64,000 bases of DNA from an uncultured Bacilli bacterium (GTDB lineage Bacteria > Bacillota_I > Bacilli_A > RF39 > UBA660): the NCBI GenBank assembly GCA_934129945.1, contig CAKOXC010000002.1:53747-117746 (forward strand), in the 5' to 3' direction. The position numbers and the translations under genes were made by a program. Shown here one piece after another: positions 9,792-64,000 of the stretch. The number at the start of each line of letters is the position of its first letter. Position 1 is the first letter of the stretch. The notes beneath the pieces are model-generated. The model ran no database searches, was not told the DNA's origin, and was given only the letters and a program-made list of their open reading frames with translations.

Positions 9792-10681
9792 TTATAATAA
9801 TTTATATTTTCTAGCAATTATTCTATCATCAGAGCAATATTTTATTATATATTCATTATCTTGTTTACATATTATCACTCCAACCGTTTTATTTTCTTCA
9901 ATTGTTTTAATATTTGAATTAATATAATTCATATACATCATAATCTGGCCTATATGCTCTTTTTTTAATTCTGTTACTTTTAATTCAACTACTACATAAC
10001 ACTTATATTTTATATTATAAAGTAATAAATCAATATAATTATATCGGTCATCTAATTTAATTTTATATTCACCACCTATAAAACTAAATGAATTACCAAG
10101 TTCTTTCATAAAAGATTCAATATCTTCCAAAATTAAATTATGTAATGCTTTCTCAGTAACTATTTCAGTATTATTTCTATTTCTAATTAGTATGGGATTT
10201 GGTACTAAATCTTTACTTTAATTTTATCTTTAGAAACTATTTTATTTTTAGTTTCAATTGGCATTCTTTGATATTCCTTGTTTTTAATTTTTTCTCTTAA
10301 TTCTCTTTTAGATAAATTTCTTTCATATGCAATATTAATATAATATATCAATTCATTATCGTCTTTAATTGATAATAATTCAGAATAATGGCTCCAAGAC
10401 AATTTGGTCGCCAGTGGCGACCATTTTTCATTTTTGAATATTCTATAATATTGTCTAATACGTCTCAATGTTCTCTCGTTATACTTTTTCCCAAACTCAA
10501 TAGCCAGTCTATTTGAATAATCATTTAAAATATTATCTCCATACTTACTGCCAGCTTCATCCAGCAATTTACCAACTTCAAAGTATATAATAACTTTATG
10601 CCTTTCTTTTGAATAATCTTTTACTTTTGAATATATTTCATTATCAATTAATTTGTTTTTTATCTCATTGTAATAATTCAT
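9792..10681 (-). pseudogene. YhcG-like (DUF1016) PD-(D/E)XK nuclease split into two ORFs by a frameshift
   Basis: N-terminal DUF1016-like ORF (10205..10681) and C-terminal PDDEXK-like ORF (9792..10130, motif IDLLLYN...VVVELK) lie in different frames. The downstream frame is open back to 10217. A 17-nt local duplication around AAAGAT explains the shift. Confidence 0.6.
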
Positions 10682-10724
10682 GTCTACTCCTTTCTATAGA
10701 CTATAATTTGCAATTCTTAATTTA

Positions 10725-11543
10725 TTATTTTAATTCATTATTATCTTTTTCTAATTCTTTTAAACTTTTTTCTGGTGTTTTTAATTCTTCTGGCATAGTT
10801 CCTCCCAATCTTTTAATACTATTTCTAACTTCTTTACCTACTTCAAAATGAACAGAATTTGCAGTATATTCATTATCCACATTGTCTCTTTTTAATTTAG
10901 CATCAGTTTGAGCAATTCTAAATATATTATCTGCAAGTTCTTCACTACCCATATTATCTAATATATCTTCTCTATATCTAAGTTTCTTTCTTTTAAAAAT
11001 AACATCGGCTGTTTCACCATTATAAAGTCCTTTATATCCCGCATTATGAAATCTTGCTAAATCTTTTACACCAATTTTCACTGCTGTTTTATTTAAATTA
11101 AAATTTCCTTTTCTTGCTTGATTTCTTCTATATAATCTTTTTTCATTTTCTGTCAATTCATTATAATTTTTTTCACTTAGTTCTTGTTTTCTTGTTTGAA
11201 TGGCAAAATAAGTTTGACCTAAAGCAATTATCTTCTTTTTAGGATTAGCATTTTGAACTATTAAATAGCATATATATCTAGTTAATTTATAATCCTTGAT
11301 AAATTCTTCTTTACCTTTGCCATTTTTTATTGGCTTCCTGACTTCAGGAAGCCAATATAAATTATCATTGCTACTATTTTTGTAAGATGCAACTGCTTTC
11401 TTAATTACGTTATTAAAATTTTCCCACTTGCTATATTCAAGCAATGGCATTAATTCTCTTGCTAACCAATATTCTTCACCATTTTTATCTATATGTTTAA
11501 CATTTTCAAATACTTTTTCTGTGTATTTCTTCAATCCATTCAT
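10725..11543 (-). CDS. DinD-like (DNA-damage-inducible protein D family) protein, copy 1
   Basis: Paralog of 58451..59305 (about 60% identical by eye). Likely start ATG 11543 with SD AAAGGAGG. Family assignment from memory of DinD/Bro-N-like proteins. Confidence 0.5.
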   Translation of the reverse strand: MNGLKKYTEKVFENVKHIDKNGEEYWLARELMPLLEYSKWENFNNVIKKAVASYKNSSNDNLYWLPEVRKPIKNGKGKEEFIKDYKLTRYICYLIVQNANPKKKIIALGQTYFAIQTRKQELSEKNYNELTENEKRLYRRNQARKGNFNLNKTAVKIGVKDLARFHNAGYKGLYNGETADVIFKRKKLRYREDILDNMGSEELADNIFRIAQTDAKLKRDNVDNEYTANSVHFEVGKEVRNSIKRLGGTMPEELKTPEKSLKELEKDNNELK

Positions 11544-11559
11544 TTTATCATCCTCCTTT

Positions 11560-13596
11560 CTATGGACTACAAGTCTCAATTTTTAATTTATTATTTTTAA
11601 TTTTAAACATAATACTACCATTTTTATCTGTTCTATATATTTTTGAATCCTGTAATGTATCTAAAACTTCTTTATTCGGATGGCCATACCCATTATTCTT
11701 TCCAACACTGATTATGGAATATTTAGGATTTATATAATCAATAAATTCTTTTCCACTGCTTGTCTTAGAACCATGGTGTCCAATTTTTAATACATCGATA
11801 TCAGATAAATCATAATTATTTATTATATCCTTTTCTCTTGCTATTCCAGCATCTCCCATAAATAAAAATTTATAATTATTTAACTTTGTATAAATAACAT
11901 TGCTATTATTATTTTCATTATCATATTCTTTTGTATTTAAAAAATATAATTTACTATTATTAATATCTAAATTCTGAATACAAGAAGAATATTTAATATT
12001 ATTTTTATCTAATAAATTCATCAAATTTATTTCTAAATCATTATAAGATCCACAATTAAATACCACTTGTTCTACTTTAAAGTCACTAACTAAATTGACT
12101 GCTTCTCCCATATGATCGTAGTCTCCATGAGTAATTATTAATTTTGTAATTTTAGTAATACCAAAACTTTTTAAAAATGTAATTAATTGCTCTGAATCTT
12201 TATATTCTTTTGTTTTTTCTTGCCAGGATTCTTTTTGATAGGTAGTTTTACCACCTGTATCAATCATTACTACGTCTTTGTGTTTTGGACTTATAATTAC
12301 TTCACAATCACCTTGACCTGCATCTAAATAATAAATATAATAGTTGCTATTAAATAAATAACTAAATTTAGTTATTACTACTAAGACTGGTAAAAATAGC
12401 AATAATTTTTTGTTCTTTGTTTTTATAAATAAAATCAGGAAAACATAATATATTAAAATTATAATTAAATTCATTTTACCAGTAGTTATTATAAAAGCTA
12501 ATTTTTCTAATAAAAAATTACTGTATTCTAGTATTACTATTAAGATATGTAAAATACTATCTAAAAATGGAAAAATAAAAGAAAGTAATAAAAATGGGTA
12601 AAGAATATATGAAACAAATGGTACTATTAAAATATTAATAAATATTGAGATTAAATTAAATTCAAAATTATTGTAAAGAGTTATTGGTAAAGACAATAAA
12701 AAAGCAAATATTGAAAGACTTATAATACATTTTGGTTTAATTAAAAATAAACCAAGTGTTATTATAAATGAATATTGGAATCCAACATCTAATATTAAAA
12801 ATGGATTTATTAAAATTAAAATAAAGGCTGTATAAAAAAGTAATTTTGAATTATTAAAATCTTTGAATAAATTTATATTTTTTAAAGTATAAAATATAGT
12901 AACTCTTAAAACAGAAGACGTAAACATTACTAAAAAACTATAAATATATAAAAATATTACGATGAATTTATTATTGAACTTTAATTTATTAAATATAAGA
13001 ATAAGCATGCTTATATGCATGCCTGAAATAGCAAATAAATGGGTTATTCCATTGGTTTTATATAAATTGTATACATTACTCTCTAAAAGGCTTTTATCAC
13101 CTAGGATAAAGGTATAAAAATATTTAGAATCCTTTCTATTATCAATCATTTTTATGATAAAATTCTTTAATTTATAAAAAATATTATTCTTTTTAATTAT
13201 TTTAACTGTCTTTGTATTCATGATAAGATTTATATTTTTAGATTTTAAATATTTTTTATAATTAAAGTTATTAGTAATAGTATTATTAACTGGTTCATTA
13301 ACTGAACCAGTAGTTTTTATAGTATATCCTAACTCAAGATTATTCTCTAAATACTTTTTTTCACTTTCTGTTTTTATATAGTAATTTGCTATTATTTTTT
13401 GTTTATTCTTTAACTGCATTGAAAGTTTATCACCATCTATTTTATAAGCTACTAAAACACCATTAAATTTATCTATATTTAAATTAGAATTTTTTATATT
13501 AAAATTTAGTATAATATAAACAGATAACATTATAAATAAAATAATTAATGTAATATTAGATTGTAATATTTGATTTAATTTTTTCAAACAATGCAT
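11560..13596 (-). CDS. comEC: DNA internalization competence protein ComEC/Rec2
   Basis: 678 aa. N-terminal polytopic membrane region plus C-terminal metallo-beta-lactamase motif (ITHGDYDHMGEA). Overlaps comEA. Confidence 0.85.
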   Translation of the reverse strand: MHCLKKLNQILQSNITLIILFIMLSVYIILNFNIKNSNLNIDKFNGVLVAYKIDGDKLSMQLKNKQKIIANYYIKTESEKKYLENNLELGYTIKTTGSVNEPVNNTITNNFNYKKYLKSKNINLIMNTKTVKIIKKNNIFYKLKNFIIKMIDNRKDSKYFYTFILGDKSLLESNVYNLYKTNGITHLFAISGMHISMLILIFNKLKFNNKFIVIFLYIYSFLVMFTSSVLRVTIFYTLKNINLFKDFNNSKLLFYTAFILILINPFLILDVGFQYSFIITLGLFLIKPKCIISLSIFAFLLSLPITLYNNFEFNLISIFINILIVPFVSYILYPFLLLSFIFPFLDSILHILIVILEYSNFLLEKLAFIITTGKMNLIIILIYYVFLILFIKTKNKKLLLFLPVLVVITKFSYLFNSNYYIYYLDAGQGDCEVIISPKHKDVVMIDTGGKTTYQKESWQEKTKEYKDSEQLITFLKSFGITKITKLIITHGDYDHMGEAVNLVSDFKVEQVVFNCGSYNDLEINLMNLLDKNNIKYSSCIQNLDINNSKLYFLNTKEYDNENNNSNVIYTKLNNYKFLFMGDAGIAREKDIINNYDLSDIDVLKIGHHGSKTSSGKEFIDYINPKYSIISVGKNNGYGHPNKEVLDTLQDSKIYRTDKNGSIMFKIKNNKLKIETCSP

Positions 13597-14418: not shown

Positions 14419-15261
14419 CTATTTTGCTATTTTTTTGATTTCAGTAATATTTAGTCCTGTTAATCTAGAAATACTTTCTAAAGGTATTTTTTCATCAAGC
14501 ATTTTCTTTGCTATTTCTATTTGCTTTTGATTAGATCCTTTTTCAATACCTTCTTCAATACCCTCTAATCTTTCACTATTTAAAATCATTTCTTGATCTT
14601 CTTCTGGATCAAATAATATCTCGGCAAATTCTTCTGCACTTAATTTCTTCTTAAACTTTTCCATTATCTTACCCCTTATCTTACTTCCTTGTACAAGTTC
14701 TTCCATTTTTTTAATACTTGTACAATTTAGCATCGCAAGATTCTTTTCTTTCTCGCTAATATTATTATAATCCATTTCTTTATATTTGCCTAGATATATT
14801 TCATGTATTGTTATTTTTTCATCTCTTACTTTATTTTTCTCATCATACATTCTTTTGGTTGTATTTATTATATCTTCATCTATTTCACATAAATAGTTAT
14901 TTATATTTATTTGATATAACTTAAATTCTTTTTTATAGTTCTTATCATATTTAAATATTTGTAATATTACTTTTGCTACATAACATAAATTTCTATTATC
15001 TAGATAATCTCTTTTAAAATTATTAGCTTCAATATTTAAAAATGTATTTGATTCTTTATCTCTTAAACATAAATCTACTCTATTTCTTGTATCTTTTATA
15101 TTTATAACCATCAATTCTTCACTCGTTAAATCAAAGCTATTTAAATCTAACTCGAAGTAATCTTTAAATATTTCATTTAATAATTCTCTAAATTCACTAC
15201 ATTCTTTAAACATACTTTTAAATATACAATCAGTAAGTAATGAGACTTTTTTCATTTGCAT
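14419..15261 (-). CDS. Rpn-family recombination-promoting nuclease / putative transposase (PD-(D/E)XK, YhgA-like), copy 1
   Basis: N-terminal D-x-I-F-K-x-x-F motif (DCIFKSMF), C-terminal EGIEEGIEKG...IAKKML repeat region typical of Rpn/YhgA-like proteins. Confidence 0.55.
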   Translation of the reverse strand: MQMKKVSLLTDCIFKSMFKECSEFRELLNEIFKDYFELDLNSFDLTSEELMVINIKDTRNRVDLCLRDKESNTFLNIEANNFKRDYLDNRNLCYVAKVILQIFKYDKNYKKEFKLYQININNYLCEIDEDIINTTKRMYDEKNKVRDEKITIHEIYLGKYKEMDYNNISEKEKNLAMLNCTSIKKMEELVQGSKIRGKIMEKFKKKLSAEEFAEILFDPEEDQEMILNSERLEGIEEGIEKGSNQKQIEIAKKMLDEKIPLESISRLTGLNITEIKKIAK

Positions 15262-37744: not shown

Positions 37745-37821
37745 GTCCTCATAGCTCAGCTGGATAGAGCATACGCCTTCTAAGCGTACGGTCGCAAGTT
37801 CGAATCTTGCTGGGGACACCA
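37745..37821 (+). tRNA. tRNA-Arg (anticodon TCT)
   Basis: Cloverleaf read by hand. Acceptor stem GTCCTCA/TGGGGAC with one G-U pair, anticodon loop CTTCTAA, T-loop GTTCGAATC, encoded CCA. Confidence 0.85.
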
Positions 37822-42064: not shown

Positions 42065-42155
42065 TTCCTCGACTATTAGATTATATCAAAAATTTTCTTA
42101 ATTGTAAAAAGAATAATTTTATGTTACAATAATGGCGATTTGGAGGTTGACAAAT

Positions 42156-42707
42156 ATGGAATTACCAAAAATTAAAATTTTAGACGAAAAGAATAAAATA
42201 TTGCATCAAAAAAGTGTAGAAGTAAAATTTCCTTTAAGTGCAAAAGAAAAGCAAGATATTAAAGATATGCTTTTATATTTAAAAATGAGTCAAATTGACG
42301 AAGAAAGAGAAAAATATGATTTAAGAGCTGGTATGGGACTTGCCTATGTTCAAATTGGTGTTTTAAAAAGAATATTTGTTATCGTTGATGAATATGAAGA
42401 AGGTAAATTTAAAAATTATGTTGTAATTAACCCAGAAATTAAAAGTATGAGTGAAGAATTAGTTTATGTTGGGGAAGGTGAAGGATGCTTAAGCATTAAT
42501 CGTGATGTTGAAGGCATTGTTCCAAGACATGCTAGAATCACAGTAGATGCTTATGACGAGGATGGAAATCCCTATACTATTCGTGTTAGAGAAGAAATTG
42601 CTATAGCATTCCAACATGAAATGGATCATCTAGATGGCATTTTATTTCCTGATAGAATTGATAAAAAGAATCCTTTTAAAGATGCAGAATTAATGCGTGA
42701 AATATAA
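42156..42707 (+). CDS. def: peptide deformylase
   Basis: Motifs GMGLAYVQIG, EGCLS, HEMDHLDG. Start ATG 42156 after SD GGAGG (track start 42132). Confidence 0.85.
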   Translation: MELPKIKILDEKNKILHQKSVEVKFPLSAKEKQDIKDMLLYLKMSQIDEEREKYDLRAGMGLAYVQIGVLKRIFVIVDEYEEGKFKNYVVINPEIKSMSEELVYVGEGEGCLSINRDVEGIVPRHARITVDAYDEDGNPYTIRVREEIAIAFQHEMDHLDGILFPDRIDKKNPFKDAELMREI

Positions 42708-46171: not shown

Positions 46172-47458
46172 ATGAAAAATAATAAGTTTATAGTGTCAAC
46201 TTTAATTCTAATAATTGGTGGAATGTTCACTAAATTATTGGGATTTATTATAAAAATAATTTACACTCGTATAATTGGTGAAGATGCCATCAGTTTATAT
46301 ATGCTTGTAATGCCTACATATTCTTTATTAATTACTATAGCTTCTCTAGCTTTACCTATAGCTATATCAAAACTAGTTGCAGAAGGAAAAAATAGTATTA
46401 AGTTAGCAATTAACACTGGAGTTATTATATTATTTACTAACTTTGTAATAATATTGACAATGTTTTTAACATCTTCCTTTATTGCAACAAATTTACTTAA
46501 TGAGCCTAGATGTAAACCTCTTTTAATTGCATGTTCCCTAACCCTACCATTCATTAGTATATCATCACTAATCAAAGGTTATTTTTTTGGTAAGCAAAAA
46601 GTTTATCCATATGCAATTTCTAATATTTTAGAGCAAGTAGTAAGATTAGTTATTATATCTTTAGTTTTACCAATTTTAATAAAAAAAGGTATTATTTATG
46701 CTGTACTTGGTTTAATTCTTTTATCAATAATTTCTGAAATTTCTTCAATTATTATTTTTATGTTTTTTCTTCCTAAAAAATTTGTTATTCATAAAGAAGA
46801 GCTTATACCCAGCAAATATTATATTAAAGAAATACTTGGTGTTTCTATTCCTACTGTTTCATCAAAAATTATTGGTAACATTGGATTCTTTTTTGAGCCA
46901 ATTATTTTAACTAACGTTTTAATGTTTTGTGGTTATAATTCTACTTATATTATTCGTGAATATGGAGCATATAATGCATATAGTTTAGCGCTTCTTACAA
47001 TGCCAGGATTTTTTATAAACGCTTTATGTCAAGCAATCGTACCTGAAGTTTCTAAATATTTACATAATAAAAAAATGATTAAAAGAAGAGTTATTCAAGC
47101 CTTAACATTTTCATTTGTTATTGGTTTTATTTCTTCAATAATCATCTTTATATTTAGAGATTTATTACTTAGTGTTGTTTATAATACAACTACTGGTGCT
47201 AACTATATTAGTGTTTTAGCACCAGTGTTTGTTCTCTTTTACTTAGAAGCACCACTCATGAGTACTTTGCAGGCAATTGGTAAATCTATGCTAACCATGA
47301 AAATAACAACTTTTGGAGTAATTGTAAAATTATTAAGTCTTTTCTTATTATCCCTTTGTCACATTGGTATTTATAGTTTAGTTTACTCTGAAATAATTAA
47401 TATCATTTTTGTAGTTTTAATAAATGCTTTTTATATAAAAAAATATATATTTAATTAA
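46172..47458 (+). CDS. MOP-superfamily polysaccharide/lipid II flippase (SpoVB/MurJ/Wzx-like)
   Basis: 428 aa, about 12 TMs. Position corresponds to spoVB next to comN. Confidence 0.6.
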   Translation: MKNNKFIVSTLILIIGGMFTKLLGFIIKIIYTRIIGEDAISLYMLVMPTYSLLITIASLALPIAISKLVAEGKNSIKLAINTGVIILFTNFVIILTMFLTSSFIATNLLNEPRCKPLLIACSLTLPFISISSLIKGYFFGKQKVYPYAISNILEQVVRLVIISLVLPILIKKGIIYAVLGLILLSIISEISSIIIFMFFLPKKFVIHKEELIPSKYYIKEILGVSIPTVSSKIIGNIGFFFEPIILTNVLMFCGYNSTYIIREYGAYNAYSLALLTMPGFFINALCQAIVPEVSKYLHNKKMIKRRVIQALTFSFVIGFISSIIIFIFRDLLLSVVYNTTTGANYISVLAPVFVLFYLEAPLMSTLQAIGKSMLTMKITTFGVIVKLLSLFLLSLCHIGIYSLVYSEIINIIFVVLINAFYIKKYIFN

Positions 47459-48335
47459 GTTTACTTCTGGGATGATTCTTTAAATATTCTTGTCTTAATA
47501 CATCGTTAGTTATATGAGTATATATTCCTGTTGTAGACAAAGACTCATGTCCTAAAAGCTGTTGGATACTTTTTATATCAGCACCTCCATTAAGCATGTG
47601 TGTTGCAAATGTATGTCTTAACACATGGGGTGATATTTTATGCTTAATTGCTGCTTCGTTTACCATTTTGTCAATAATATATTCAACTCCTCTAGTTGTA
47701 ATTTTAGAACCGTTATTATTTAAAATTAAATATTCTGATAATTTATTATTGAGTAAATATTTTCTCGAATCATTTATATATTTTTCAAGTACTTCTTGTA
47801 AGTAATCACCATAATAAACAATTCTTTCTTTTTTACCTTTTCCTAAAATATTTATTGTTTTTTTATCAAATTCAATATCATTAATTTTTAAATTAACTAG
47901 TTCTGAAACACGAATACCAGTGTCATATAAAAGTTCTAATATACACCTATTTCTAAGTCCTAAAGGGGTTTTAGTATCCGCAGAATCAAATAATTTATTT
48001 ATTTCTTCATAATTTAAAAAATCAGGTAATTTTTTATCTTTTTTGGGATTAGAGATATTTTTAAAAGGATTATTCAAAACAACTTTTTCTTCAGTTAAAA
48101 ATTTATAATAACTTCTTAAAGAGCTTAAATTTTTACTAATACTATTTTTTTTATATTTTAAACTATCTAAATATTTTAAATAATTTCTAATCATATCAAT
48201 ATTTATTTTTTTATAGTCCAAATGGTTATCATTAAGATAATCTAAAAATTTAGTTATTTCATAATCATAACCATTAATTGTTAAATCAGAATAATTATAT
48301 TCATATTTTAATTTTTCTAAAAATTTTTCTTTCAT
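47451..48335 (-). CDS. xerC: tyrosine recombinase XerC/XerD (CodV-like)
   Basis: R...HxxR...Y active-site pattern (HVLRHTFATHML, GHESLSTTGIYTHI). Position near topA as Bacillus codV. Confidence 0.75.
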   Translation of the reverse strand: MKEKFLEKLKYEYNYSDLTINGYDYEITKFLDYLNDNHLDYKKINIDMIRNYLKYLDSLKYKKNSISKNLSSLRSYYKFLTEEKVVLNNPFKNISNPKKDKKLPDFLNYEEINKLFDSADTKTPLGLRNRCILELLYDTGIRVSELVNLKINDIEFDKKTINILGKGKKERIVYYGDYLQEVLEKYINDSRKYLLNNKLSEYLILNNNGSKITTRGVEYIIDKMVNEAAIKHKISPHVLRHTFATHMLNGGADIKSIQQLLGHESLSTTGIYTHITNDVLRQEYLKNHPRSKLN

Positions 48336-54033: not shown

Positions 54034-54897
54034 TTACTTTCTATCAAATGTTATTCCTTTAATATATTCATTTTTCATATCATTAACTATTCTAGTAGAA
54101 ACTTTATCATAGTCAACTTCATTGTTTTTTATAGCACCAATTTTTTTACCAATAGTTTCATAAGTTTTTTCTATATCACGAACATTATTTATTCCATAAC
54201 GTTCTTCTAAAATTTTAGGATAATAGTCATGTAACATATTTAAAATATGAATTGCAACATCATCCATTGGTAATATTTCTTCTTTTATAGCAGTAGTAGC
54301 TGCTAAATTTAAAGCAACTTTTTCATTATCCATTTTAGGCCATAAAATACCTGGTGTATCTAATAATAAAATATCACTGGACGTTTTAAGCCAAACTAAA
54401 TTTTTAGTTACACCAGGCTTGTTACCTGTAACTGCAACTTTCCTTCCAGCCATTTTATTAATTAATGTTGATTTACCAACATTTGGTATTCCAATTACTA
54501 AAGCTCTTATTTCTTTTTCTTTAAGACCTTTATTTATTCTTTTTTCTTGAAGTTCTTGCATCATTTCATGAGTAACATCTATTATTTTTTTATAGTCATC
54601 ATTATTATTTAAATCAGCTAAAATTACTTTAGCTCCCATATTTTCATAATATGATACCCAATAACTAGTAGCTCTTAAATCGCATAGATCTTTTTTTGTC
54701 ATTATAATAATTCTTGGTTTACCTTGAATCAAATTATAAATATCTTTAATCTTAGAAGAATATGGAATTCTAGCATCAACAAGTTCATATACTATGTCAA
54801 TTAAATTATATTTTTCTTGAATTAATCTTCTAGTTTTAGCCATGTGACCTGGAAACCAATTTATATTTGTTTTATTTTCATTATTCATTATTTTCAC
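54034..54897 (-). CDS. rbgA: ribosome biogenesis GTPase A (YlqF/RbgA)
   Basis: INWFPGHMAK, circularly permuted GTPase motifs; upstream of rnhB as in Bacillus. Confidence 0.85.
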   Translation of the reverse strand: MKIMNNENKTNINWFPGHMAKTRRLIQEKYNLIDIVYELVDARIPYSSKIKDIYNLIQGKPRIIIMTKKDLCDLRATSYWVSYYENMGAKVILADLNNNDDYKKIIDVTHEMMQELQEKRINKGLKEKEIRALVIGIPNVGKSTLINKMAGRKVAVTGNKPGVTKNLVWLKTSSDILLLDTPGILWPKMDNEKVALNLAATTAIKEEILPMDDVAIHILNMLHDYYPKILEERYGINNVRDIEKTYETIGKKIGAIKNNEVDYDKVSTRIVNDMKNEYIKGITFDRK

Positions 54898-54993
54898 TTC
54901 CTTTTATTAATTAATAATTCTAATTGCTTCTTTTCTATCAGAATCTTTTTCTTTACTGCTTAAATCTATATAATTAGTATTAATCTGTCTAGA

Positions 54994-55134
54994 TCACCTA
55001 TCTACAAATGCTTTTGGTATTGTTAAACTTCCGTCTTGATTAATCATACATTTGCTAAAAAGATGCTTTTGCCATCTTGACCATCTATCATATTCATAAG
55101 CAGCAAGCTTTTCAATTATATCATTATTTTTCAT
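54994..55134 (-). CDS. small ORF (46 aa) with SD AGGTG, ending at TGA but open in-frame for 28 further codons to TAATAA
   Basis: Manual translation MKNNDIIEKLAAYEYDRWSRWQKHLFSKCMINQDGSLTIPKAFVDR*SRQINTNYIDLSSKEKDSDRKEAIRIIN. Confidence 0.25.
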   Translation of the reverse strand: MKNNDIIEKLAAYEYDRWSRWQKHLFSKCMINQDGSLTIPKAFVDR

Positions 55135-55298
55135 AAAACACCTATTTAATTAATATTTCTTTCATCATTTTTTCTCTTTATTTTCATTTAAATAATTCTT
55201 TGTAATAATTACATCATATTTATATATTAAACCATCAGGAGAATTTTTCTAATTGGTTAGTCCTATATGCTCTTTTACTAATTTTGCTCTATTATATA

Positions 55299-55778
55299 CT
55301 AATTCAGCAGCAGGATATCCACTCTTTCACTTATTCTTATTGCTTTGATACGTTCTAATAATTTGTCAAAATATTTTGTATCATATTTATTTCCATATAT
55401 AAAACGTTCATCATTTAATGCAAATCCCTTAGTCATATATTCTTTTAGTATTTTTGTAGCCCATATTCTAAATTCTGTTGCTTTTTTCGAATTTACTCTA
55501 TATCCTACTGCAATTATGGCATCTAAACTATAAATAATTGTGTTATAGTTTTTTCCATCATCAGCAGTTAACGAGCATTTCTCGGTAACTGATTTTTTAT
55601 CTAACTCATTATCTTCAAATATATGTTTTAAGTGTAAGCTTATATTATCGGTAGAACATTCAAAAACTTTTGACATTCCTTTTTGTGATAACCATAAAGT
55701 TTCATCTTTATAAATAGCATCTACTATAATATTACCTTCATTATTTTTATATATAATTAATTTATTGTCTTCCATCAA
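55299..55778 (-). pseudogene. RhuM-family (virulence-associated) protein, N-terminal half only
   Basis: 159 aa matching the RhuM N-terminal ~150 aa (ETLWLSQKGMSKVF...LDAIIAVGYRVNSKKATEFRIWATKILKEY). Full-length family about 330 aa; no C-terminal remnant downstream. Confidence 0.55.
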
Positions 55779-56023
55779 TAATCTCCTTTCTATTAATTTT
55801 TTTAAATCAATCTTAATATTTTTATATTTATCAATATAAATACATTTTGCTTTATTTTCTAGTTATAGTTTACTTCTTAAATTCATAAATCCTTTTAATT
55901 ATATCATAAAAAAGATAGATTTTAAATCTACCTAAATACTAATTATTAAAATCTAAATATTTTATATTCATTAATTATCGCTACCACATTATTCTTATAC
56001 TATTCATATGCTATATAGTTTTT

Positions 56024-57088
56024 TTAAAATCTTAAAAATCTTCTTAATCTGGATTTAACATTTTGCTTTTCTTTTGTTTCTATTTCTTTAAAATTTATAT
56101 CATTAGATGTTGTTTCAATAACATTTAATCTTTCGCTCACATTTTCTAATAGAGCATCCAAATCTTTGTGCATTTTAATATCCCAACATATATCTCTAAA
56201 ATCTTTAGAACCTGGTCTAAGATTTAATGTTATACAATGAGATACTTTATCTAATCCTATGGCATAAATGCAAAGTAAAATTTCATAAAATTTATCATTT
56301 TTATGTTCTATCATCTCATCAATTAATTGAGTATATAAATTACTTTCAATAAAATTTTCATCAGTCATAACTGGATAAAGTAAAAAATCTATTTCAGGAT
56401 TTTCTACCAATTTTTTCATATTAACTAAATGACGGTTATCATTAAGAGAAATACTATTTTGAGCAAGATAACCGATTGAATGTTTCGGATAAGAAGTTAA
56501 ACTTTGTAATCTACTAGAGTCGACACTTGCTATTAGTTGCATATCTTGTCTATGATAAGGACTATTAATTGAATCTTCATTCTTTGCAATAGTTGCTAGA
56601 TTATCCCATACAGTCCTAGACAAATCATTATCGCGTAATTCTTTTTTCACATCATGAGATTCTACTAATAATTTTAAATCTTCTTCATGAAAAGGACTAT
56701 CAATAAAAATTGAGTCACCTAAAATCCATAAGCAATAACGTGCTGTTTTCATTTTAGATGCCATTTCTATATCTTTATAAAAATTTTTACTTTTAAAAAA
56801 TTCCTTATTAAATAAATTATCTAAAAGATGATCACAACCACCATTTTCAGTATTTTTTAAAGTAGTTATAGCTTTTATTTTAGAAGGAAAATCTTCAATA
56901 CTTAAAAGTTCTCTATCTAACAAAAATTGTAAAGAAAATCTTATTTCCTTATTATCTATATCTAAATTAATAATACTATTTTTTTCTACTTCATTTAAAG
57001 AATCAATCCATTTTTTCATATCATCAAAATTTTCAAAAAAACTATCTAATTCATATCTTTTTAATTGTTTTATAACTTTATCTTTCAT
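56024..57088 (-). CDS. hypothetical protein (354 aa), accessory region
   Basis: No recognisable domain. Confidence 0.4.
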   Translation of the reverse strand: MKDKVIKQLKRYELDSFFENFDDMKKWIDSLNEVEKNSIINLDIDNKEIRFSLQFLLDRELLSIEDFPSKIKAITTLKNTENGGCDHLLDNLFNKEFFKSKNFYKDIEMASKMKTARYCLWILGDSIFIDSPFHEEDLKLLVESHDVKKELRDNDLSRTVWDNLATIAKNEDSINSPYHRQDMQLIASVDSSRLQSLTSYPKHSIGYLAQNSISLNDNRHLVNMKKLVENPEIDFLLYPVMTDENFIESNLYTQLIDEMIEHKNDKFYEILLCIYAIGLDKVSHCITLNLRPGSKDFRDICWDIKMHKDLDALLENVSERLNVIETTSNDINFKEIETKEKQNVKSRLRRFLRF

Positions 57089-57374
57089 CTATAAACCTCC
57101 TTAAATCATATTTTAATCTATTATTTTAATAATTGCAAATTTTTTTTGAATTTCATATTCACTTACTAAACGATAACTTGAAATAGATTTTTATAAATAT
57201 CCAAAGAAATAAAATTTTGTAATAATTTTAAAATTTTAGTTACTTCTTCAAATACATGTGATTTTAATTTAAAAATTAACATAAATTTAGAATTTCCCCA
57301 AAGTATAGTAATTTTAATTCTAATTGATTTTAAAATTGTAATATGTTAGTATATACTGACAGGAGGTTATTTTA

Positions 57375-57686
57375 ATGAAATATGATGGATACTATTTAGT
57401 GGAAGTATTAATACCTGAAACGTATTCTTTGTCAATGAAATCTGGATGTATTAATTATTGTCTATGTACTAAAGACGGTGATAAATTTCACGATATTATC
57501 ACTAATAATTCTTATTGTAAAGACTCTGGATTTGGAAACCCAGAAGTAATGGATTATATACCATTTTCTGAATTTTATAATAGATTAGGGTTAAAAAGGA
57601 TAATTGTTAAAAAACGTGCTGAAAGCAACGAAGCATATAAACTAGTAAAAGAGCATAAAAAAGTATTAAAGAAAGCAAATAAATGA
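57375..57686 (+). CDS. hypothetical Cys-rich protein (103 aa)
   Basis: SD GGAGG. Followed by intrinsic terminator. Confidence 0.4.
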   Translation: MKYDGYYLVEVLIPETYSLSMKSGCINYCLCTKDGDKFHDIITNNSYCKDSGFGNPEVMDYIPFSEFYNRLGLKRIIVKKRAESNEAYKLVKEHKKVLKKANK

Positions 57687-57709
57687 AATTATTATTAAAT
57701 AAAAGTATA

Positions 57710-57737
57710 AGAGCCTCTTACATCAGAGGCTTTTTAT
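57710..57737 (+). terminator. intrinsic terminator AGAGCCTCT-tacatc-AGAGGCT + T5
   Basis: Read directly. Confidence 0.55.
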
Positions 57738-57909
57738 GTTAAAAAGAATATATTTTATAATTTATCATCTTTATTTGCATTTATAAAACATTATCATTTA
57801 TTAAAATTTTTAATTATATTATATATTAAAAATAAGATAAATTAAAATCTATCTAGCTACTAAAAATTAAAATTTAATTTTTTTAGTTTTTTAAATTTAA
57901 AAACAAAAT

Positions 57910-58442
57910 TTATTTTGAAACATTAAATATCTTAGTTATTTCATTAATTAATTTTGGATCATTTGTCATATTAATGTATCTTCTATTCATAACTTTATCG
58001 TTAATCTCATACTTATCATCAGTACATAATATTTCATAGCATACACCATTATCTTCATAATATTTATTCGTTTCATGAAAACCATTTTTTAAATAGAAAT
58101 TTTTACGTCTAACACTTATATTATCAACAGGTGAATCAATTGATAAAAATAATACTTTATATTTTTCTTTCAAATCCATTAATATTCTAGAACAATAATT
58201 TTGACTTCTTAAATCAGGCACAACTGCTAAATACATAAGGTAATATGCATTACTACAATTAACAAGATAACACATTCCTATTAATTTATCATTATCAATT
58301 ATACCGTATAAAACTGAATTATTTTCTTTAGAACACTCTTCTAATATCCAAAAAGGAAATCTTTCTTCTTTAGGAAACGAATTTAAATATAATTTTTTTA
58401 TTTCATTTGCATATTCAATGTTATTTATATATTTAAAGACAT
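57910..58442 (-). pseudogene. GNAT acetyltransferase with frameshift immediately after the start codon
   Basis: ATG 58442 with perfect SD GGAGGAATA gives MSLNI*. The long frame (NVFKYINNIEYANEIKKLYLNSFPKEERFP...MCYLVN...) is offset by one nt and has no start until 58275. Confidence 0.45.
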
Positions 58443-58450
58443 TATTCCTC

Positions 58451-59305
58451 CTATTTTATTCCTTCAAGTTTCTTTTGCGCTTTTATTTCTAATTTTTTCT
58501 TTTCTTTTTCAAGCTCTTTTAAACTTTTTTCTGGTGTTGGCATTTCTTCAGGCATTATTCCACCAATATCTGCGATTGCTTTTCTAACTTTTTTCCCAAC
58601 CTCATAATGTACATCTTTTGCTTCTTTTTCTCCTTGTACATTATCTTTTAAAAGTTTTTGTTTTGTTTGATTTATTCTAAATAAATTAGCAACTAATTCA
58701 TCTTCATTCATATTATCCAAAATATCTTCTCTATAACGTAATTTTTTTCTTTTAAAAATATCGTCAGCAGTTTCTCCATTATATAATCCTTTATATCCTG
58801 CATTATGAAATTCAGCCATATTTTTAACGCCAGCAGATGAAGCGACCTTTTGTAATGTATAATTACCTTGTCTTGTTAACTTTCTTTGATAAAATCTTTT
58901 TTCATCATCTGATAATGAATCATATTCTTGCTCTGTTATTTCTTGTTTTCTTGTTTGTATAGCAAAATATGTTTGTCCTAAAGCAACAACTTCTTTATTT
59001 GGATCAGCATTTTGTACTATTAAATAACATATATATCTTGAAAGTTTATAATCTTTAATAATTTCTTCTTTGCCTTTACCAGTTTTTATTGGCTTGTTGA
59101 CCTCAACAACCCAATCTTCTTCGCTTGAAACGCTGTTATTTGCTGCTAAAACTGCTTTATCTATTACTTTTTGAAAATTTCTCCAGTCTTTATATTCCAA
59201 TACTTTTTGTAATTCACGCGCATACCAATATTCATTTTCATATTCATCTATATGTTTAATATTCTCAAAAATATTGTTAGTATATCTATCTCCAAGTTTC
59301 TTCAT
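58451..59305 (-). CDS. DinD-like protein, copy 2
   Basis: 284 aa paralog of 10725..11543. Confidence 0.5.
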   Translation of the reverse strand: MKKLGDRYTNNIFENIKHIDEYENEYWYARELQKVLEYKDWRNFQKVIDKAVLAANNSVSSEEDWVVEVNKPIKTGKGKEEIIKDYKLSRYICYLIVQNADPNKEVVALGQTYFAIQTRKQEITEQEYDSLSDDEKRFYQRKLTRQGNYTLQKVASSAGVKNMAEFHNAGYKGLYNGETADDIFKRKKLRYREDILDNMNEDELVANLFRINQTKQKLLKDNVQGEKEAKDVHYEVGKKVRKAIADIGGIMPEEMPTPEKSLKELEKEKKKLEIKAQKKLEGIK

Positions 59306-59383
59306 TACTATCTCCTTTTTTATTGATTTATATAAAAGTTTTCCATAAGTCGATTTTTACATCTATAATCCAATTTTTTTGTA

Positions 59384-59983
59384 TTAATTAATTTTGTTTA
59401 ATTTATTGTAACTTCCTGTTTTTGATAAAACTTTATACCCTTCTTTTTGTCTTAATTTTTTTCTTTCATCTACATCAAGTACTAATACTTTCTCTGCTAT
59501 ATCAATATGTAATACTCCGTCTAAATGATCAAGTTCATGAGAAAGTACGGTTGATTCAAATCCTTCAAAAACATCTTCATGTTTTTCACCATTTAAATCA
59601 ATATAATCAACTAAAATCTTATATGGTCTTTTTACTAGTCCTGTATTATTAAGACAGCTAGCACAAGCTTCCCAGTATTCAGTTAATCCTTCACGTAATT
59701 TTACAACAGGATTTATTAAAACCCTTGCCTCATTATATTTTTCGTCGTCTTCAGTAGCAGTATCTTCTTGCATTTTATTTATTATATCAAGATTAGTATT
59801 CTTTAAATAAATTAACCTCTTAGGAATTCCAAGTTGAACAGCTGCCATAGCCATAACTCTATTTTCCTTACAGTATTTCTCTAATATCTTTATATCATTT
59901 AGTAAATCTTCATCATTAAGAACTACTTCCTTTGATATTTGTCTCAAAAATTCTTCATCATCATAAATTGTTATAGCCTTCAT
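59384..59983 (-). CDS. peptide deformylase paralog (atypical motif 2)
   Basis: Motif 1 MAAVQLGIP, motif 3 HELDHLDG present. Motif 2 reads EACAS instead of EGCLS. Confidence 0.6.
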   Translation of the reverse strand: MKAITIYDDEEFLRQISKEVVLNDEDLLNDIKILEKYCKENRVMAMAAVQLGIPKRLIYLKNTNLDIINKMQEDTATEDDEKYNEARVLINPVVKLREGLTEYWEACASCLNNTGLVKRPYKILVDYIDLNGEKHEDVFEGFESTVLSHELDHLDGVLHIDIAEKVLVLDVDERKKLRQKEGYKVLSKTGSYNKLNKIN

Positions 59984-60429
59984 TTTATAATCTCCATTTC
60001 TTCAAATAATTTTTCTATTCTATTATAATATATAACTTAAAAACCATAAATATCAAATTAAACACTAAATCAAATTTTGTCCGAATATCACAGGCATCTG
60101 TAACTATTTTATAACTAGTTTTTTTGTTCAACTTTTTTATTTGATGGTTGAAGTTGATTAAATAAATTTGAAAAACATAAGTTAACCAGAATGTATTTTT
60201 TTCTTGAAATCAATATAATCGGACTGTAAAATATAATACCATTACAGGAAAAATTATAGATAAGAAAGAATAAAATTATAACCACGTTTTTTACAACAGT
60301 AAAAATGAAACGTTGTAAAAATATAATAATATTCATAATTATTATCACTATATAAATATAATGTTGGTAGTGAACAACTAATTCCATTCTAAGAAACTGT
60401 ATAAGCTAATTTAACTTCATTTTCTATAT

Positions 60430-60610
60430 TATTTAAATATGATTCATTATTTTCAATTTCCAACCTGTTATATTTACTAATTTCATGTAATACCTTTTCT
60501 ACATTATATAATCATTTATATCTTGCATTATGAAATTCAGCCATATTTTTAATATCAACAACTAAACCAACTTTTTGAAGTGTATAATTACCCTGCTTGT
60601 TCTAATTTAC
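60430..60610 (-). pseudogene. remnant of a third DinD-like gene (internally deleted)
   Basis: 60511-60605 is about 80% identical to 58790-58880 of copy 2 (AEFHNAGYKG region). 60440-60510 weakly matches the N-terminal region. Confidence 0.45.
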
Positions 60611-60676
60611 TAAAATTTTAATCATGATAAAATATTAATATCCTACATGTTTTATTAATATTTTAAAAATTTATGA

Positions 60677-62362
60677 TTATTTTTGAACTTTTCCATTATT
60701 TATATGGATTATTTCATCAAAATTTTTAATTAATTCCATATCATGACTAATCACAATAATGGTTTTATTTGTTGCAAGTTCATCTAGTAGTTCTTTAATA
60801 TATTCTGTATTTTCTTTATCTAAAGCACTTGTAGGTTCATCAAATAAAATAATTTTTGATTTTTTTACGATTGCTCTTGCTATTGCTATCCTTTGTTTTT
60901 GACCACCTGATAAATTTGTTGATTTATCATTTATTATTGTATTATAACCTTCAGGCATCTTTAATACAAATTCGTCTAATTTAGCTTTTTGACAGGCATC
61001 TTCAAAATCCTCTTTGGTAGCATTCTTGTTTGATAATAGAATATTATCTTTTATACTTATATTAAAAATAAAGGGATCTTGATATACAACAGATATATTA
61101 TTAATTATAGATTCTTTGTCTAATTCCTTCAAATCAACATTATCGATTTTTATGCTTCCTTTATAATCATCATAATAATGTAACATCAACTTCATAATTG
61201 TTGTTTTTCCAGATCCACTTTTTCCTATCAATGCTGTCTTTTTGTTTGGCTTTATTTTAAATGAAATATTTTTTATTACAAATTTAGAATTGTTGTATTC
61301 AAAATTTACATTGTCAAATTCTATATTTCCTTTGACTTTATCTAATTTTTTTGTCCCAAATCTCTCTTCTTTTATTTCATTATTTGATAATATTTTCATA
61401 TTTTTTTCAATATTTTTGATAAAACTTGGAACATCAATACTATTTTCTATAATATGATTAAAATATATATTTATAATATTACTTATATATGTACTTAATA
61501 AAATTACTTTAGTTGTATCAAAATCAAATTTTGAAATCAATATTATTAAAATTAATATCAAAAATAAATCTGATAACTTCCAAATGTCCCATCTTATAAC
61601 ATTTGTAGTTACCCAATAATTTGCTTTTTTATCTTTTAAACTACAAAGTTCATCATTAATATCTTTATATTTTTTTACATATGTCTTTTCAGCGTCTAAA
61701 ACTTTTAATTCTTTAAATCCTAATATTGTTTGGTTTAACAAGGTTGATGCTTCATATGTTTTTTCATATTCTAAATTAGTAACTTTTTTTGTTTTTGAAA
61801 TGTAGACTCTTGTTAATATTGTTAACAGTAATAAAACTATTGCTACTAATAACCAAATTATAAAATCGATAAAAAATATAATTATAAACAAAATAATTAA
61901 ATATAAAACTTTTGTCACAGCCCATAAATATTTTGTTAATATGCTAATCATTTGTTCATTTGCATTTTCGACTGTCGTAAATAACTCTCCAACATTTATT
62001 TTTTCAAAGTCTGAATGTGACATTTTTATAATTTTTTTATAAAGATTTATTCTTATTTTTTGAGCAAATTTTATACTAACCTTTTTAGATATTTTATGAT
62101 GATAATAATGTAAAATATTAAGGCCAATAAATGACACTATCATATAGATGATTATATATTTAATTGCTGTATCAAAATTTTTTTCTATTACATTTGATAA
62201 TGAATATGATAAAGTTGTATTTGTTACAATTTCAGATAAAATAAATAGCACCATTAAAATTAAAGATATTATATACCATTTTTTATATTCCTTTGTATAA
62301 TCAAGTACACTTTTTATAGCCGTTATAAAACTCATATTATTATTTTTAGTACTTTTATTCAT
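60677..62362 (-). CDS. ABC exporter, fused permease-ATPase (MsbA/MdlB-like)
   Basis: 561 aa, 5-6 TMs. Walker A GKSGSGKTT, signature LSGGQKQRIAIARA, Walker B ILFDEPTSALD. Confidence 0.8.
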   Translation of the reverse strand: MNKSTKNNNMSFITAIKSVLDYTKEYKKWYIISLILMVLFILSEIVTNTTLSYSLSNVIEKNFDTAIKYIIIYMIVSFIGLNILHYYHHKISKKVSIKFAQKIRINLYKKIIKMSHSDFEKINVGELFTTVENANEQMISILTKYLWAVTKVLYLIILFIIIFFIDFIIWLLVAIVLLLLTILTRVYISKTKKVTNLEYEKTYEASTLLNQTILGFKELKVLDAEKTYVKKYKDINDELCSLKDKKANYWVTTNVIRWDIWKLSDLFLILILIILISKFDFDTTKVILLSTYISNIINIYFNHIIENSIDVPSFIKNIEKNMKILSNNEIKEERFGTKKLDKVKGNIEFDNVNFEYNNSKFVIKNISFKIKPNKKTALIGKSGSGKTTIMKLMLHYYDDYKGSIKIDNVDLKELDKESIINNISVVYQDPFIFNISIKDNILLSNKNATKEDFEDACQKAKLDEFVLKMPEGYNTIINDKSTNLSGGQKQRIAIARAIVKKSKIILFDEPTSALDKENTEYIKELLDELATNKTIIVISHDMELIKNFDEIIHINNGKVQK

Positions 62363-62459
62363 AAAACTAAATTCCTTTCCTAATTTTATATCAGCATATC
62401 ATAAAATTGATTAGTTTTACAAGACCTCCTAAACATAAATATTTTATTAAAATAATTCA

Positions 62460-63035
62460 TTATTTTAATAATAGTAAATTTTTCTCTTGAATTTCATATT
62501 CACTGATTAAATAATGATATTTATTTGCTTGAGCAAGTAAATCACTCTTTTTTAATTCAAATAATAATTTTATGTCTTCTTTTGAAAATAATTTTAATAT
62601 TTTTTGAAGCTCATTTTGTTCTAATTTACCAAAATTTAAATCATGATAAACTATTAATTTAGATACTTTATTTTTTAAATCATCAGGAATATTAAACTTA
62701 TTACAGAACTTTAGAAATATTTCATTTGATTTATTCCAATGATTATAAAAATGACCAACTTTATTTTCGTCTTCTTTATAAACATAAGGTTTACCTATAT
62801 CATGAAATAAAGCTGCAAGTCTTAATGTTAAATTATTAGAAACACCATCAACTACATGAAGAATATGTTCATAAACATCATAAGTGTGCCATTCATTATT
62901 TTGATTAAATCCCTTAGATTTTTCTAATTCTGGAATTAATAGAAAAATTTCTTTTTCATGATCTTTTATTAATTTACTAGGCTTATCACTCAATAAAATA
63001 TTAAATAAATTTTTAACATTGTCCATTCTTTTCAA
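62460..63035 (-). CDS. HD-domain phosphohydrolase
   Basis: H...HD motif (ALFHDIGKP). Confidence 0.65.
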   Translation of the reverse strand: MKRMDNVKNLFNILLSDKPSKLIKDHEKEIFLLIPELEKSKGFNQNNEWHTYDVYEHILHVVDGVSNNLTLRLAALFHDIGKPYVYKEDENKVGHFYNHWNKSNEIFLKFCNKFNIPDDLKNKVSKLIVYHDLNFGKLEQNELQKILKLFSKEDIKLLFELKKSDLLAQANKYHYLISEYEIQEKNLLLLK

Positions 63036-63079: not shown

Positions 63080-64000
63080 TTAGATATTAAATTCATAATT
63101 CAAGTCTATATTTTTAGTTTTTTCATTTATTATTAAACTGTTTGTTGTAAGTAGTAAACTTGCAATAGAAATAGCACTATTTAAAGAAGATATTAATACT
63201 TTTGTAGAATCTAAAACAGTAGTATCATCAATATTTTCAAACTTATCAGTGACAAGATTATATACTTTTTTATAATTGCTTTTTACTATTTCATTTTTTA
63301 TTTCATTATAATCAAGCATAGCATTATCAATTATTTTTTTAAATGGTTTTTCTAATATATTTTTCAAAATAAATTTTTCATTTAATTTTGCTGCTACTTC
63401 TAAGTATGAAATACCTCCACCTATAGATACTCCTTCATCAAGAGAAAAAATAGCATTAATTGCATCATCAAAATGCATTTTAGTTTCTCGTATTTCTGTA
63501 TTTGTTTTACCACCAACTTCTATTAAAGCAAGGCCATTTTTTAACATTGATTTTCTTCTTTGATAAAATTCAATATCAAAATCATTAGTTAAATCATTAA
63601 TGGCTAAATTAATTTTATTTACATAATCTTTAATATTAATATCAAAATATATAGTAGTTTTTTCTTTATTAATTTTAATTTCTTTTAAAATTCCAAAATA
63701 ATAATCTTCTTTAAATATTTTAGCGCCACTTATTTTCACTATATCCTGAGATATTAAAAACTTTCTAATTCCATATTCAGGATTTTTTAACAAATAAATA
63801 TTTAAATCACTATCATAGTTTATGGCTAAAACATTATTAATTAAATCTTCATCATAATCATCTGCTAAAATCACTAAATCTTTTTTTCTATCAAGGCATT
63901 CATTAATAATATCACTTACAGTTTCTAAATCTTCTATTTTATTATTAGTTACTAAAATGTAAGGATTTTTTAACTCTATCAAATTACTATCTTTAAAAAA
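63080..64000 (-). CDS. highly divergent GroEL/Cpn60-family paralog, C-terminal ~300 aa; gene runs off window end
   Basis: Alignable with GroEL residues about 200-525: NPYILVTNNKIEDL vs SPFILLADKKISNI; GLALIEVGGKTNTEIRETKMHFDDAINAIFSLDEGVSIGGG vs [49 protein letters not shown] vs ILDPTKV. No GGM tail. Much more divergent than a housekeeping groEL. Confidence 0.6.
   Translation of the reverse strand, partial: FFKDSNLIELKNPYILVTNNKIEDLETVSDIINECLDRKKDLVILADDYDEDLINNVLAINYDSDLNIYLLKNPEYGIRKFLISQDIVKISGAKIFKEDYYFGILKEIKINKEKTTIYFDINIKDYVNKINLAINDLTNDFDIEFYQRRKSMLKNGLALIEVGGKTNTEIRETKMHFDDAINAIFSLDEGVSIGGGISYLEVAAKLNEKFILKNILEKPFKKIIDNAMLDYNEIKNEIVKSNYKKVYNLVTDKFENIDDTTVLDSTKVLISSLNSAISIASLLLTTNSLIINEKTKNIDLNYEFNI

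Follow-up and report, generated by a model that had tools for sequence, protein, structure and literature searches.

The interval described here lies between an HD-domain gene (stop codon at 62460) and rbgA (start codon at 54897) on contig CAKOXC010000002.1 of an uncultured Bacilli bacterium (assembly GCA_934129945.1), within a window, the whole stretch of DNA analysed, of 64,000 nucleotides (nt) and 24.6% GC. An initial annotation of this window had described the part from 54898 to 60610 as a decayed accessory region that looked like the remains of an integrated element or a defence island. We compared the interval with related assembly loci, labelled L001 to L040. The relatives of the window are metagenome-assembled genomes (MAGs) labelled uncultured Erysipelotrichaceae or Bacilli, and exact-protein look-ups found identical proteins in human gut metagenomes, Hadza samples among them. 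Every gene of the interval is on the minus strand, with orf103 the sole exception, and the spacers are as AT-rich as had been noted (GC 13-20%). In this strain a RhuM gene, a GNAT acetyltransferase gene and a small phage-like open reading frame (ORF) are dead, and DinD2, def2, orf354, orf103 and an ABC exporter gene are intact (Table 1).

Table 1. Features of the interval between the HD-domain gene and rbgA, in window positions.
Feature	Position	Strand	Description
rbgA	54034-54897	-	Leads the conserved core block rbgA-rnhB-ltaS-topA and bounds the variable region on the left
Small phage-like ORF pseudogene	54901-55134	-	75 codons; TGG to TGA at 54994-54996, a conserved Trp
RhuM pseudogene	55150-55775	-	N-terminal 158 codons (55299-55775), out-of-frame codons 196-240, 3' tail
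orf354	56024-57088	-	Intact short-form member of an undescribed helical-repeat family; resident at the site
Direct repeat, right-hand	57114-57170		Degenerate copy of the last ~16 HD codons and stop, just upstream of orf354; repeat families D5, D6
orf103 segment	57238-57800	+	orf103 57375-57686, terminator hairpin 57712-57731, 38-nt RhuM trace 57763-57800
GNAT acetyltransferase pseudogene	57910-58442	-	-1 frameshift in an A-run four codons past the start
DinD copy 2 (DinD2)	58451-59305, cassette to 59366	-	Intact gene
def2	59384-59983	-	Intact accessory peptide deformylase (predicted); motifs MAMAAVQ / EACAS / HELDH
Rearrangement scar	60496-60639	-	DinD fragment 60496-60601 abutting HD fragment 60597-60639; repeat families D1 (84%), D2 (93%)
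ABC exporter half-transporter	60677-62362	-	Pfam ABC_membrane and ABC_tran; strain-specific, inside the variable block
Direct repeat, left-hand	62453-62511		Genuine 3' end of the HD-domain gene (62460-63035); bounds the variable region on the right; repeat families D5, D6

The two direct repeats, one the end of the HD gene itself and the other its degenerate copy, are 87% identical over 58 nt and bracket a 5.3-kb block (57171-62452) that contains the ABC exporter, the DinD/HD scar, def2, DinD2, the GNAT gene and the orf103 segment. In L024, whose flanks are ~98% identical to those of the window, the order is a Cpn60-like gene, HD, a gene for a methyltransferase of 246 amino acids (aa), def, DinD, an intact GNAT gene, orf351, an intact 334-aa RhuM gene, the small phage-like ORF and rbgA, and window segments 57238-57800 (orf103) and 60072-62462 (ABC exporter and scars) are missing. 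In L040, with flanks ~95% identical at the nucleotide level, the orf354 allele starts 30 nt after the HD stop, which makes this an empty site. Core identity resumes at 62453-62511 in both L024 (98%) and L040 (95%); the right-hand HD-end repeat is also present in L024, and L040 has a single copy. The duplicated segment of L024 (L024:6725-6790 against L024:9975-10022), a repeat of ~100 nt, seems to continue beyond the HD stop and to include the opening codons of orf351: orf351 begins MDDKVIK, and the methyltransferase there begins MSNKIIK.

These comparisons, which the initial annotation had proposed as a check, delimited the insertion as the block 57171-62452, with its limit on the HD stop side at 62452. 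The earlier limit had been drawn at the ABC exporter (60610). The exporter is strain-specific, its position being held by the 246-aa methyltransferase gene in L024 and by nothing in L040, and since the repeats bracket the whole block, we place the right boundary of the variable region at 62452 instead. Because orf354 is present in the empty-site assembly L040, we regard it as resident and not as part of the insertion, and as an intact gene it does not belong with the decayed region to which it had been assigned. The proposal of an accessory, partly decayed interval is borne out by the empty site of L040 and by the other cargo of L024, with its intact RhuM and GNAT genes. It had been said that the same gene order with intact genes throughout the genus would imply core status; such an order was seen in L024 but not in L040 or in other genera.

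Further from the window, rbgA-rnhB-ltaS-topA is kept in eight MAG loci (L009-L016), and L017 has rbgA, rnhB and topA with no ltaS match. The sequence upstream of rbgA differs in every relative examined, with FIST, aldehyde dehydrogenase and GNAT genes in L012, glycosyltransferase and sulfatase genes in L016, and RhuM, DUF1016 and DinD in L015 and L017. In L010 a gene for a 528-aa large serine recombinase (L010:33-1619) ends 67 nt before the rbgA ORF, and four MAG contigs (L009, L011, L013 and L014) end 35-47 nt upstream of rbgA. We conclude that this site is one where assemblies break and where, in relatives, integrating elements insert. RhuM lies directly upstream of rbgA in the distant relatives L017 (L017:8907-9929) and L015 (L015:9491-9844), its stop overlapping the rbgA start in L017. 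The L017 RhuM is 47-56% identical to the L024 allele and its rbgA is 53% identical, a similar divergence that fits long residence of RhuM at the site. The same similarity also suggests an old association of RhuM with rbgA, on which more recent replacement of alleles has been superimposed.

A different pattern was found in L031 and L032, which represent another genus, with rbgA 58% and HD 63% identical to the window at the amino acid level. Their HD-rbgA interval holds a RhuM 94-96% identical in amino acids to the L024 allele, a DinD 83-85% identical to DinD2 and an orf103 75% identical to that of the window. At the DNA level the RhuM, DinD and orf103 pieces are 82-94% identical, compared with ~70% for flanks and core; similarity ends within tens of bases of each gene, and the order of the pieces differs from that in the window. 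RhuM, DinD and orf103 are thus shared between genera as gene-sized cassettes. With respect to an integron-type cassette, no integrase is present, and inspection of the cassette ends by eye showed no conserved motif or hairpin.

As many as seven further assemblies, from at least six samples, carry the identical lesions in gap-free alignments at 99.8-100% identity, indicating that the lesions are real and not assembly errors. Table 11 fits the window, in which long ORFs stay open and Trp is encoded by TGG, and an alternative genetic code (TGA as Trp or Gly) was ruled out as the cause of the in-frame TGAs by these intact ORFs. Ratios of non-synonymous to synonymous substitution rates (dN/dS) were 0.04-0.10 for core genes, 0.10 for def2 (compared with L024), 0.44 for DinD2 and 0.37-0.53 for orf354. 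The reading frame orf90 (60115-60387), for which no homologue was found and which is not called in public assemblies, was treated as spurious, and a promoter scan was uninformative in DNA that is 76% AT (84 sites against 75 expected).

The RhuM gene had been described as an N-terminal half with no C-terminal remnant, and the first part of that description stands. The N-terminal ORF (55299-55778, 159 aa) matches PF13310 at 114.8 bits against a gathering threshold of 33.7 (E 5.5e-33), reaching only profile positions 1-93 of 252, and is far from a full-length ORF of about 330-350 aa. The C-terminal part has nevertheless left traces: a tblastn search with the intact RhuM proteins of L017 and L015 recovered codons 196-240 in a different frame (55183-55323) and, within them, a TAG (55249-55251) in place of the Trp of homologues, and a tail match to L031 revealed the last codons and the stop at 55150-55194. 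DNA alignment to the intact 334-aa RhuM gene of L024, whose product matches PADLOC family PDC-S05 (E 5e-129), placed a 107-nt deletion with a frameshift near 55319-55323 and a 264-nt deletion near 55183-55194. Given that the middle persists out of frame and that the tail is retained, we interpret the lesion as two internal deletions and not as a simple cut-off. The 90 nt upstream of RhuM (55779-55867 against L017:8809-8902) are 88% identical, and the N-terminal coding parts are only ~44% identical in protein, so that RhuM alleles look mosaic.

Between RhuM and rbgA lies the small phage-like pseudogene, which the initial annotation had missed together with the HD fragments at 57114-57170 and 60597-60639 and the RhuM trace in the orf103 segment. 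Its 46-codon ORF adjoining rbgA stays in frame for 29 codons beyond the TGA, and homology to gp044 of Microcystis phage Ma-LMM01 and to a human faecal phage contig, both of which have W at that position, spans the stop. The same TGA is present in L024, with four amino acid differences, one of which involves a conserved Trp. Neither this ORF nor orf354 or orf103 matched any family in Pfam, NCBIfam, PHROGs or PADLOC, in agreement with the earlier report that the last two lack detectable domains. The third dead gene, GNAT, had been reported as out of frame by one nucleotide with its Shine-Dalgarno-proximal ATG, and alignment to the intact 177-aa L024 allele confirmed this, locating a change from AAAA to AAA at about 58432-58434, downstream of the ATG at 58442. 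The L024 protein matches Acetyltransf_1, Acetyltransf_7 and Acetyltransf_10; the window gene lacks an intact frame, and its residual 121-aa ORF gave weak GNAT matches only in Pfam. The identical lesion is found in L001-L007.

DinD2 is, as had been stated, a DinD-like copy, and it is intact. It matched NF008573 at 327.4 bits against a cutoff of 242 over profile positions 9-284 of 288, carries a Bro-N type N-terminal domain (PF02498, 34.8 bits against 25.6, residues 15-107) and matched PADLOC family PDC-S13 (E 1e-94); a Type I specificity-subunit model also matched. Its cassette extends from ~60 nt ahead of the start codon to the stop codon. Amino acid identity is also high to L015 (79-80%), and rbgA of L015, L031 and L032 is only 56-58% identical to that of the window. 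Expression of E. coli DinD is SOS/LexA-regulated, and the protein affects RecA filaments. The third DinD copy, described earlier as shattered, is indeed broken, consisting of one fragment of 35 codons (codons 144-178; 106 nt) that is 84% identical to DinD2 in nucleotides and has an in-frame TGA at 60512-60514. It abuts a 43-nt internal fragment of the HD gene (93% identity), and the joint scar is missing from L024.

DinD copy 1 (10725-11579), 63.5% identical to DinD2, lies in a second small insertion (9792-11579) together with a frame-split YhcG/DUF1016 PD-(D/E)XK nuclease gene (9792-10130 and 10205-10681), the whole flanked by comEC (11560-13596) and holA (8763-9704). Close to it is a PDDEXK_2 (Rpn-like, 'transposase_31' type) nuclease gene at 14419-15261. 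PDDEXK_2/Rpn-like nucleases are called recombination-promoting and might bear on cassette movement.

The def paralog was correctly described as having EACAS in place of the EGCLS of the canonical def1 (42132-42707), to which def2 is only 28% identical, but reading it as an atypical, decayed copy was not supported. The protein matched PF01327 at 107.9 bits against 22.8 over residues 2-164 and scored below every NCBIfam equivalog cutoff. The canonical motifs of such enzymes are hydrophobic-G-hydrophobic-A-A-x-Q (I), EGCLS (II) and HExxH (III) (PMC12690207); def2 departs from them by Gly to Ala in motifs I and II and Leu to Ala in motif II, with HELDH (motif III) kept. It retains one Cys and two His as metal ligands as well as the catalytic Glu and Gln, and all of these residues line up with those of the solved enzyme 1szz. 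Of 2305 homologues found at E<=1e-10, the best 120 include 102 with EACAS, identity across genera is 65-70%, and the homologues occupy varied chromosomal contexts. The dN/dS of 0.10 together with the conserved EACAS subfamily argues that def2 is a conserved accessory deformylase and not a remnant; it behaves as a conserved gene under core-like purifying selection, with a predicted deformylase function.

A recent survey reports accessory peptide deformylases (PDFs) from roughly half of bacterial genomes, frequently on mobile elements, and notes that variants in motifs I and II (type 3) may have little or no activity (PMC12690207). Like these enzymes, def2 is a second PDF, sits in a strain-variable block and combines Gly to Ala in motifs I and II with retained ligands. 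Unlike accessory PDFs on plasmids or integrons, def2 is on neither, and its variant motif, far from being a case of sporadic decay, typifies a large subfamily under strong purifying selection. In other assemblies (L037:2893-4145) a def2 homologue (91% aa identity) stands in a row of M20 peptidase, DUF488-like and def genes, and the M20 peptidase gene beside rbgA in L031 (L031:1138-2373) is 66% identical to the one in L037, so that pieces of this row also wander. A functional link between orf354 and def2, raised by a 354-aa gene before the def2 homologue in L035, did not hold up, as the 354-aa protein shows no relationship to orf354 and tblastn with orf354 matched nothing anywhere in L035.

The orf103 segment is bounded by a 10-nt repeat, AAAATTTTAA, and is 82% identical in nucleotides to a 529-nt piece in L031/L032. 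orf103 has a strong Shine-Dalgarno sequence and, from a terminator scan, its own terminator hairpin. Its 19 homologues are 68-75% identical; it abuts RhuM fragments in L031-L034 and is not beside RhuM in L029/L030. The AlphaFold2 (AF2) model was poor, with a predicted local distance difference test score (pLDDT) of 48 and a predicted template modelling score (pTM) of 0.29, and was unusable for a fold search.

orf354 is predicted to be a helical-repeat protein, its repeat being of ~35 residues with the core motif S-L-N-S-P-Y-H-x-x-D-M-x-L-I. Its close homologues (n=31) are mostly ~515 aa long and align to its first ~265 residues, and a profile search of 1.84 billion representatives returned only 225 family members, among them proteins in which the ~35-residue repeat occurs 15 times in tandem and a recurrent short form of 337-360 aa that ends in the same C-terminus as orf354. 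As the short form recurs in other lineages with the same C-terminus, orf354 is intact, and the possibility that it is a truncated 515-aa gene was ruled out. The long and multi-repeat relatives, including those with 15 tandem repeats, had no Pfam match. The AF2 model is confident (pLDDT 81, pTM 0.78) and all-helical; as for the fold search that had been suggested, the best structural matches were designed helical repeats and the HEAT-repeat subunit of PP2A, but Foldseek against viral structures gave nothing at E<=0.001, and the sequence profile found chance matches only among PDB sequences (IL-23 receptor, E 0.06). In its predicted all-helical fold and ~35-residue repeat orf354 resembles alpha-solenoid scaffolds (TPR, Sel1-like, HEAT), from which it differs in its motif, S-P-Y-H-x-x-D-M, and in that no Pfam repeat family matches the sequence. 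We infer that orf354 is probably a non-enzymatic protein-binding solenoid scaffold. The long-form relatives have metabolic, cell-envelope or unannotated neighbours with no conserved neighbour among them, and no linkage of the short form to HD or RhuM elsewhere was seen in the one context retrieved.

Upstream of the HD gene (63080-63982; L001:1-4009) lies a 505-aa Cpn60/TCP1-like gene, an unusual chaperonin-like paralogue in an operon-like row, preceded by a radical SAM gene, DUF4130 and an ADP-ribosylglycohydrolase gene.

We conclude, with a probability of about 0.68, that the HD-rbgA interval is an accessory hotspot of a low-GC gut Bacilli clade, assembled piecemeal and partly decayed, and not one dead element. 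An older resident layer beside rbgA would comprise orf354, the RhuM gene and the small phage-like ORF, and a later layer would be the 5.3-kb block, which would have come to lie between HD and orf354 through either a single crossover (Campbell-type integration) or a duplication of the HD end. In both cases the direct repeats would allow the block to be looped out in a RecA-dependent manner. The HD fragment inside the block, joined as it is to a piece of DinD, speaks for a second copy of HD in the past. Accessory genes of the hotspot, def2 and the ABC exporter included, would be gained and lost one by one, and RhuM, DinD and orf103 would move between genera separately, each as its own cassette. 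RhuM and DinD may be defence- or toxin-type conflict genes that are dispensable here, which would account for the decay of RhuM, GNAT and the small ORF, and def2 would have been kept by selection.

Integration hotspots and defence islands between conserved core genes are a concept drawn from the pan-genomes of cultured bacteria. The interval is like them in its fixed core flanks (HD on one side and rbgA-rnhB-ltaS-topA on the other), variable cargo, enrichment in RhuM and DinD, pseudogenes, scars and an empty site. It is unlike them in having no validated defence system or recombinase, in its single-gene pieces and in that def2, the ABC exporter and GNAT are not defence-like; the host, an uncultured gut Bacilli lineage of 24% GC, differs as well. 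With respect to Campbell-type insertions and elements that duplicate a gene 3' end, the likeness lies in the HD 3'-end repeats (58 nt; ~100 nt in L024) that bracket the block and in the empty L040, and the differences are that the repeats are only 87% identical, that there is no integrase and that an extra HD fragment lies inside the block.

Several points weigh against a piecemeal hotspot. The L040 sequence stops ~100 nt past orf349, which leaves its RhuM side out of view, and L040 could reflect a secondary precise deletion instead of the ancestral state. The edges of the RhuM, DinD and orf103 cassettes, inspected by eye, show no conserved motif or hairpin. The sources cited below give no experimental validation of RhuM or DinD as defence genes (PMC3710099, PMC9881135). 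Finally, the 58-nt repeats could equally be att remnants of an element that lost its integrase.

This last point leads to the reading of the initial annotation that the region, either the 5.3-kb block or all of the interval, is what remains of one integrated element, here a degraded prophage, satellite or integrative mobilizable element in the HD 3' end, with the 58-nt repeats as attL and attR and the integrase deleted. We consider it improbable. Flanking direct repeats that duplicate a gene 3' end were found, as was a relative with an empty site, so the earlier expectation of flanking repeats held for the 5.3-kb block; there is, however, no tRNA attachment site, the only tRNA of the window lying 17 kb away (37745-37821). 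DinD genes occur on Streptococcus satellite prophages and plasmids, the large serine recombinase abuts rbgA in L010, and the phage-like small ORF adjoins rbgA, all of which would suit such an element. Yet no integrase family was detected by Pfam scan among the nine ORFs of 54898-62452, nor was there an excisionase, replication or structural gene, and searches of the five spacers against the related loci and the rest of the window matched only flanks and already identified cassettes; relatives share the tyrosine recombinase at 47451-48335 along with the core flank. Against 50,697 phage and 72,556 plasmid records we found no backbone but only single-gene matches (dinD on Streptococcus satellite prophages and a few plasmids, and generic ABC ATPase domains), no record having more than one gene in common with the block. 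Moreover, cargo differs between close relatives despite the same junctions, the pieces common to another genus are separate, single-gene-sized and differently ordered, and the second HD fragment within the block is more easily explained by duplication and rearrangement than by a clean att site.

It is similarly doubtful that the interval is a working anti-phage defence island made up of DinD2, orf354, orf103 and perhaps def2 and the ABC exporter, acting jointly or each alone, in which the dead genes would represent turnover. This part of the earlier description found some support, since the RhuM and DinD proteins gave strong, family-specific PADLOC matches; these were to the candidate families PDC-S05 and PDC-S13 only. 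RhuM, DinD and DUF1016 genes are placed inside restriction-modification (R-M) loci and enriched there (PMC9881135), and for RhuM a toxin function has been predicted (PMC3710099). The fast evolution of DinD2 and orf354, the horizontal exchange of cassettes and a second DinD paired with DUF1016 at 9.8-11.6 kb also speak for such an island. As in type I R-M loci (PMC9881135, PMC3710099), the same three families are present in the window, mobile and often fragmentary; unlike there, the window copies are flanked by housekeeping genes (HD/rbgA and comEC/holA), and no gene for HsdR, HsdM or HsdS is nearby in the parts examined. PADLOC detected no validated defence system in the interval, matched the ABC exporter weakly to mad3, mad8 and AriA and gave no match for orf354, orf103, GNAT or def2. 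The RhuM copy is dead, and the examined parts of the window show no R-M genes next to DinD1 or DinD2. Homologues of orf354 and orf103 also occur among metabolic, cell-envelope and unannotated genes without recognizable defence genes, their linkage to RhuM or DinD is inconsistent, and def2 is under core-like purifying selection with homologues in varied chromosomal contexts.

That the interval is ordinary core genome with sequencing or assembly errors in AT-rich homopolymers can be set aside almost entirely. In its favour, GNAT is broken by a single-nucleotide change within a run of A, where errors typically arise. Against it, the same gap-free lesions recur across samples, those of RhuM are 107- and 264-nt deletions plus a point nonsense codon, and gene content differs between close relatives.

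With the interval taken as a piecemeal hotspot, the position of orf354 as a resident beside RhuM, and a rate five to ten times that of core genes, raise the tentative and rather unlikely idea that this 'SPYH' family, restricted to uncultured gut Bacilli, might be conflict-related, either as a defence sensor or adaptor or as a target of phage proteins. Separately, and no more probably, the exchange of single genes without a recombinase could reflect an unrecognised route of cassette transfer.

These results do not overturn current understanding, and the hotspot itself is of a known kind: uncultured, very low-GC gut Bacilli carry anchored variable hotspots like those of model bacteria. The parts that may reward further study are the two undescribed protein families and the apparent recombinase-free exchange of cassettes. 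The relatives provide a three-state series, with an empty site, intact cargo and decayed cargo, for a species that cannot be grown. The analysis also brings to light a conserved deformylase subfamily with Gly to Ala in motifs I and II and flags two undescribed families, the helical-repeat protein orf354 and the small basic protein orf103.

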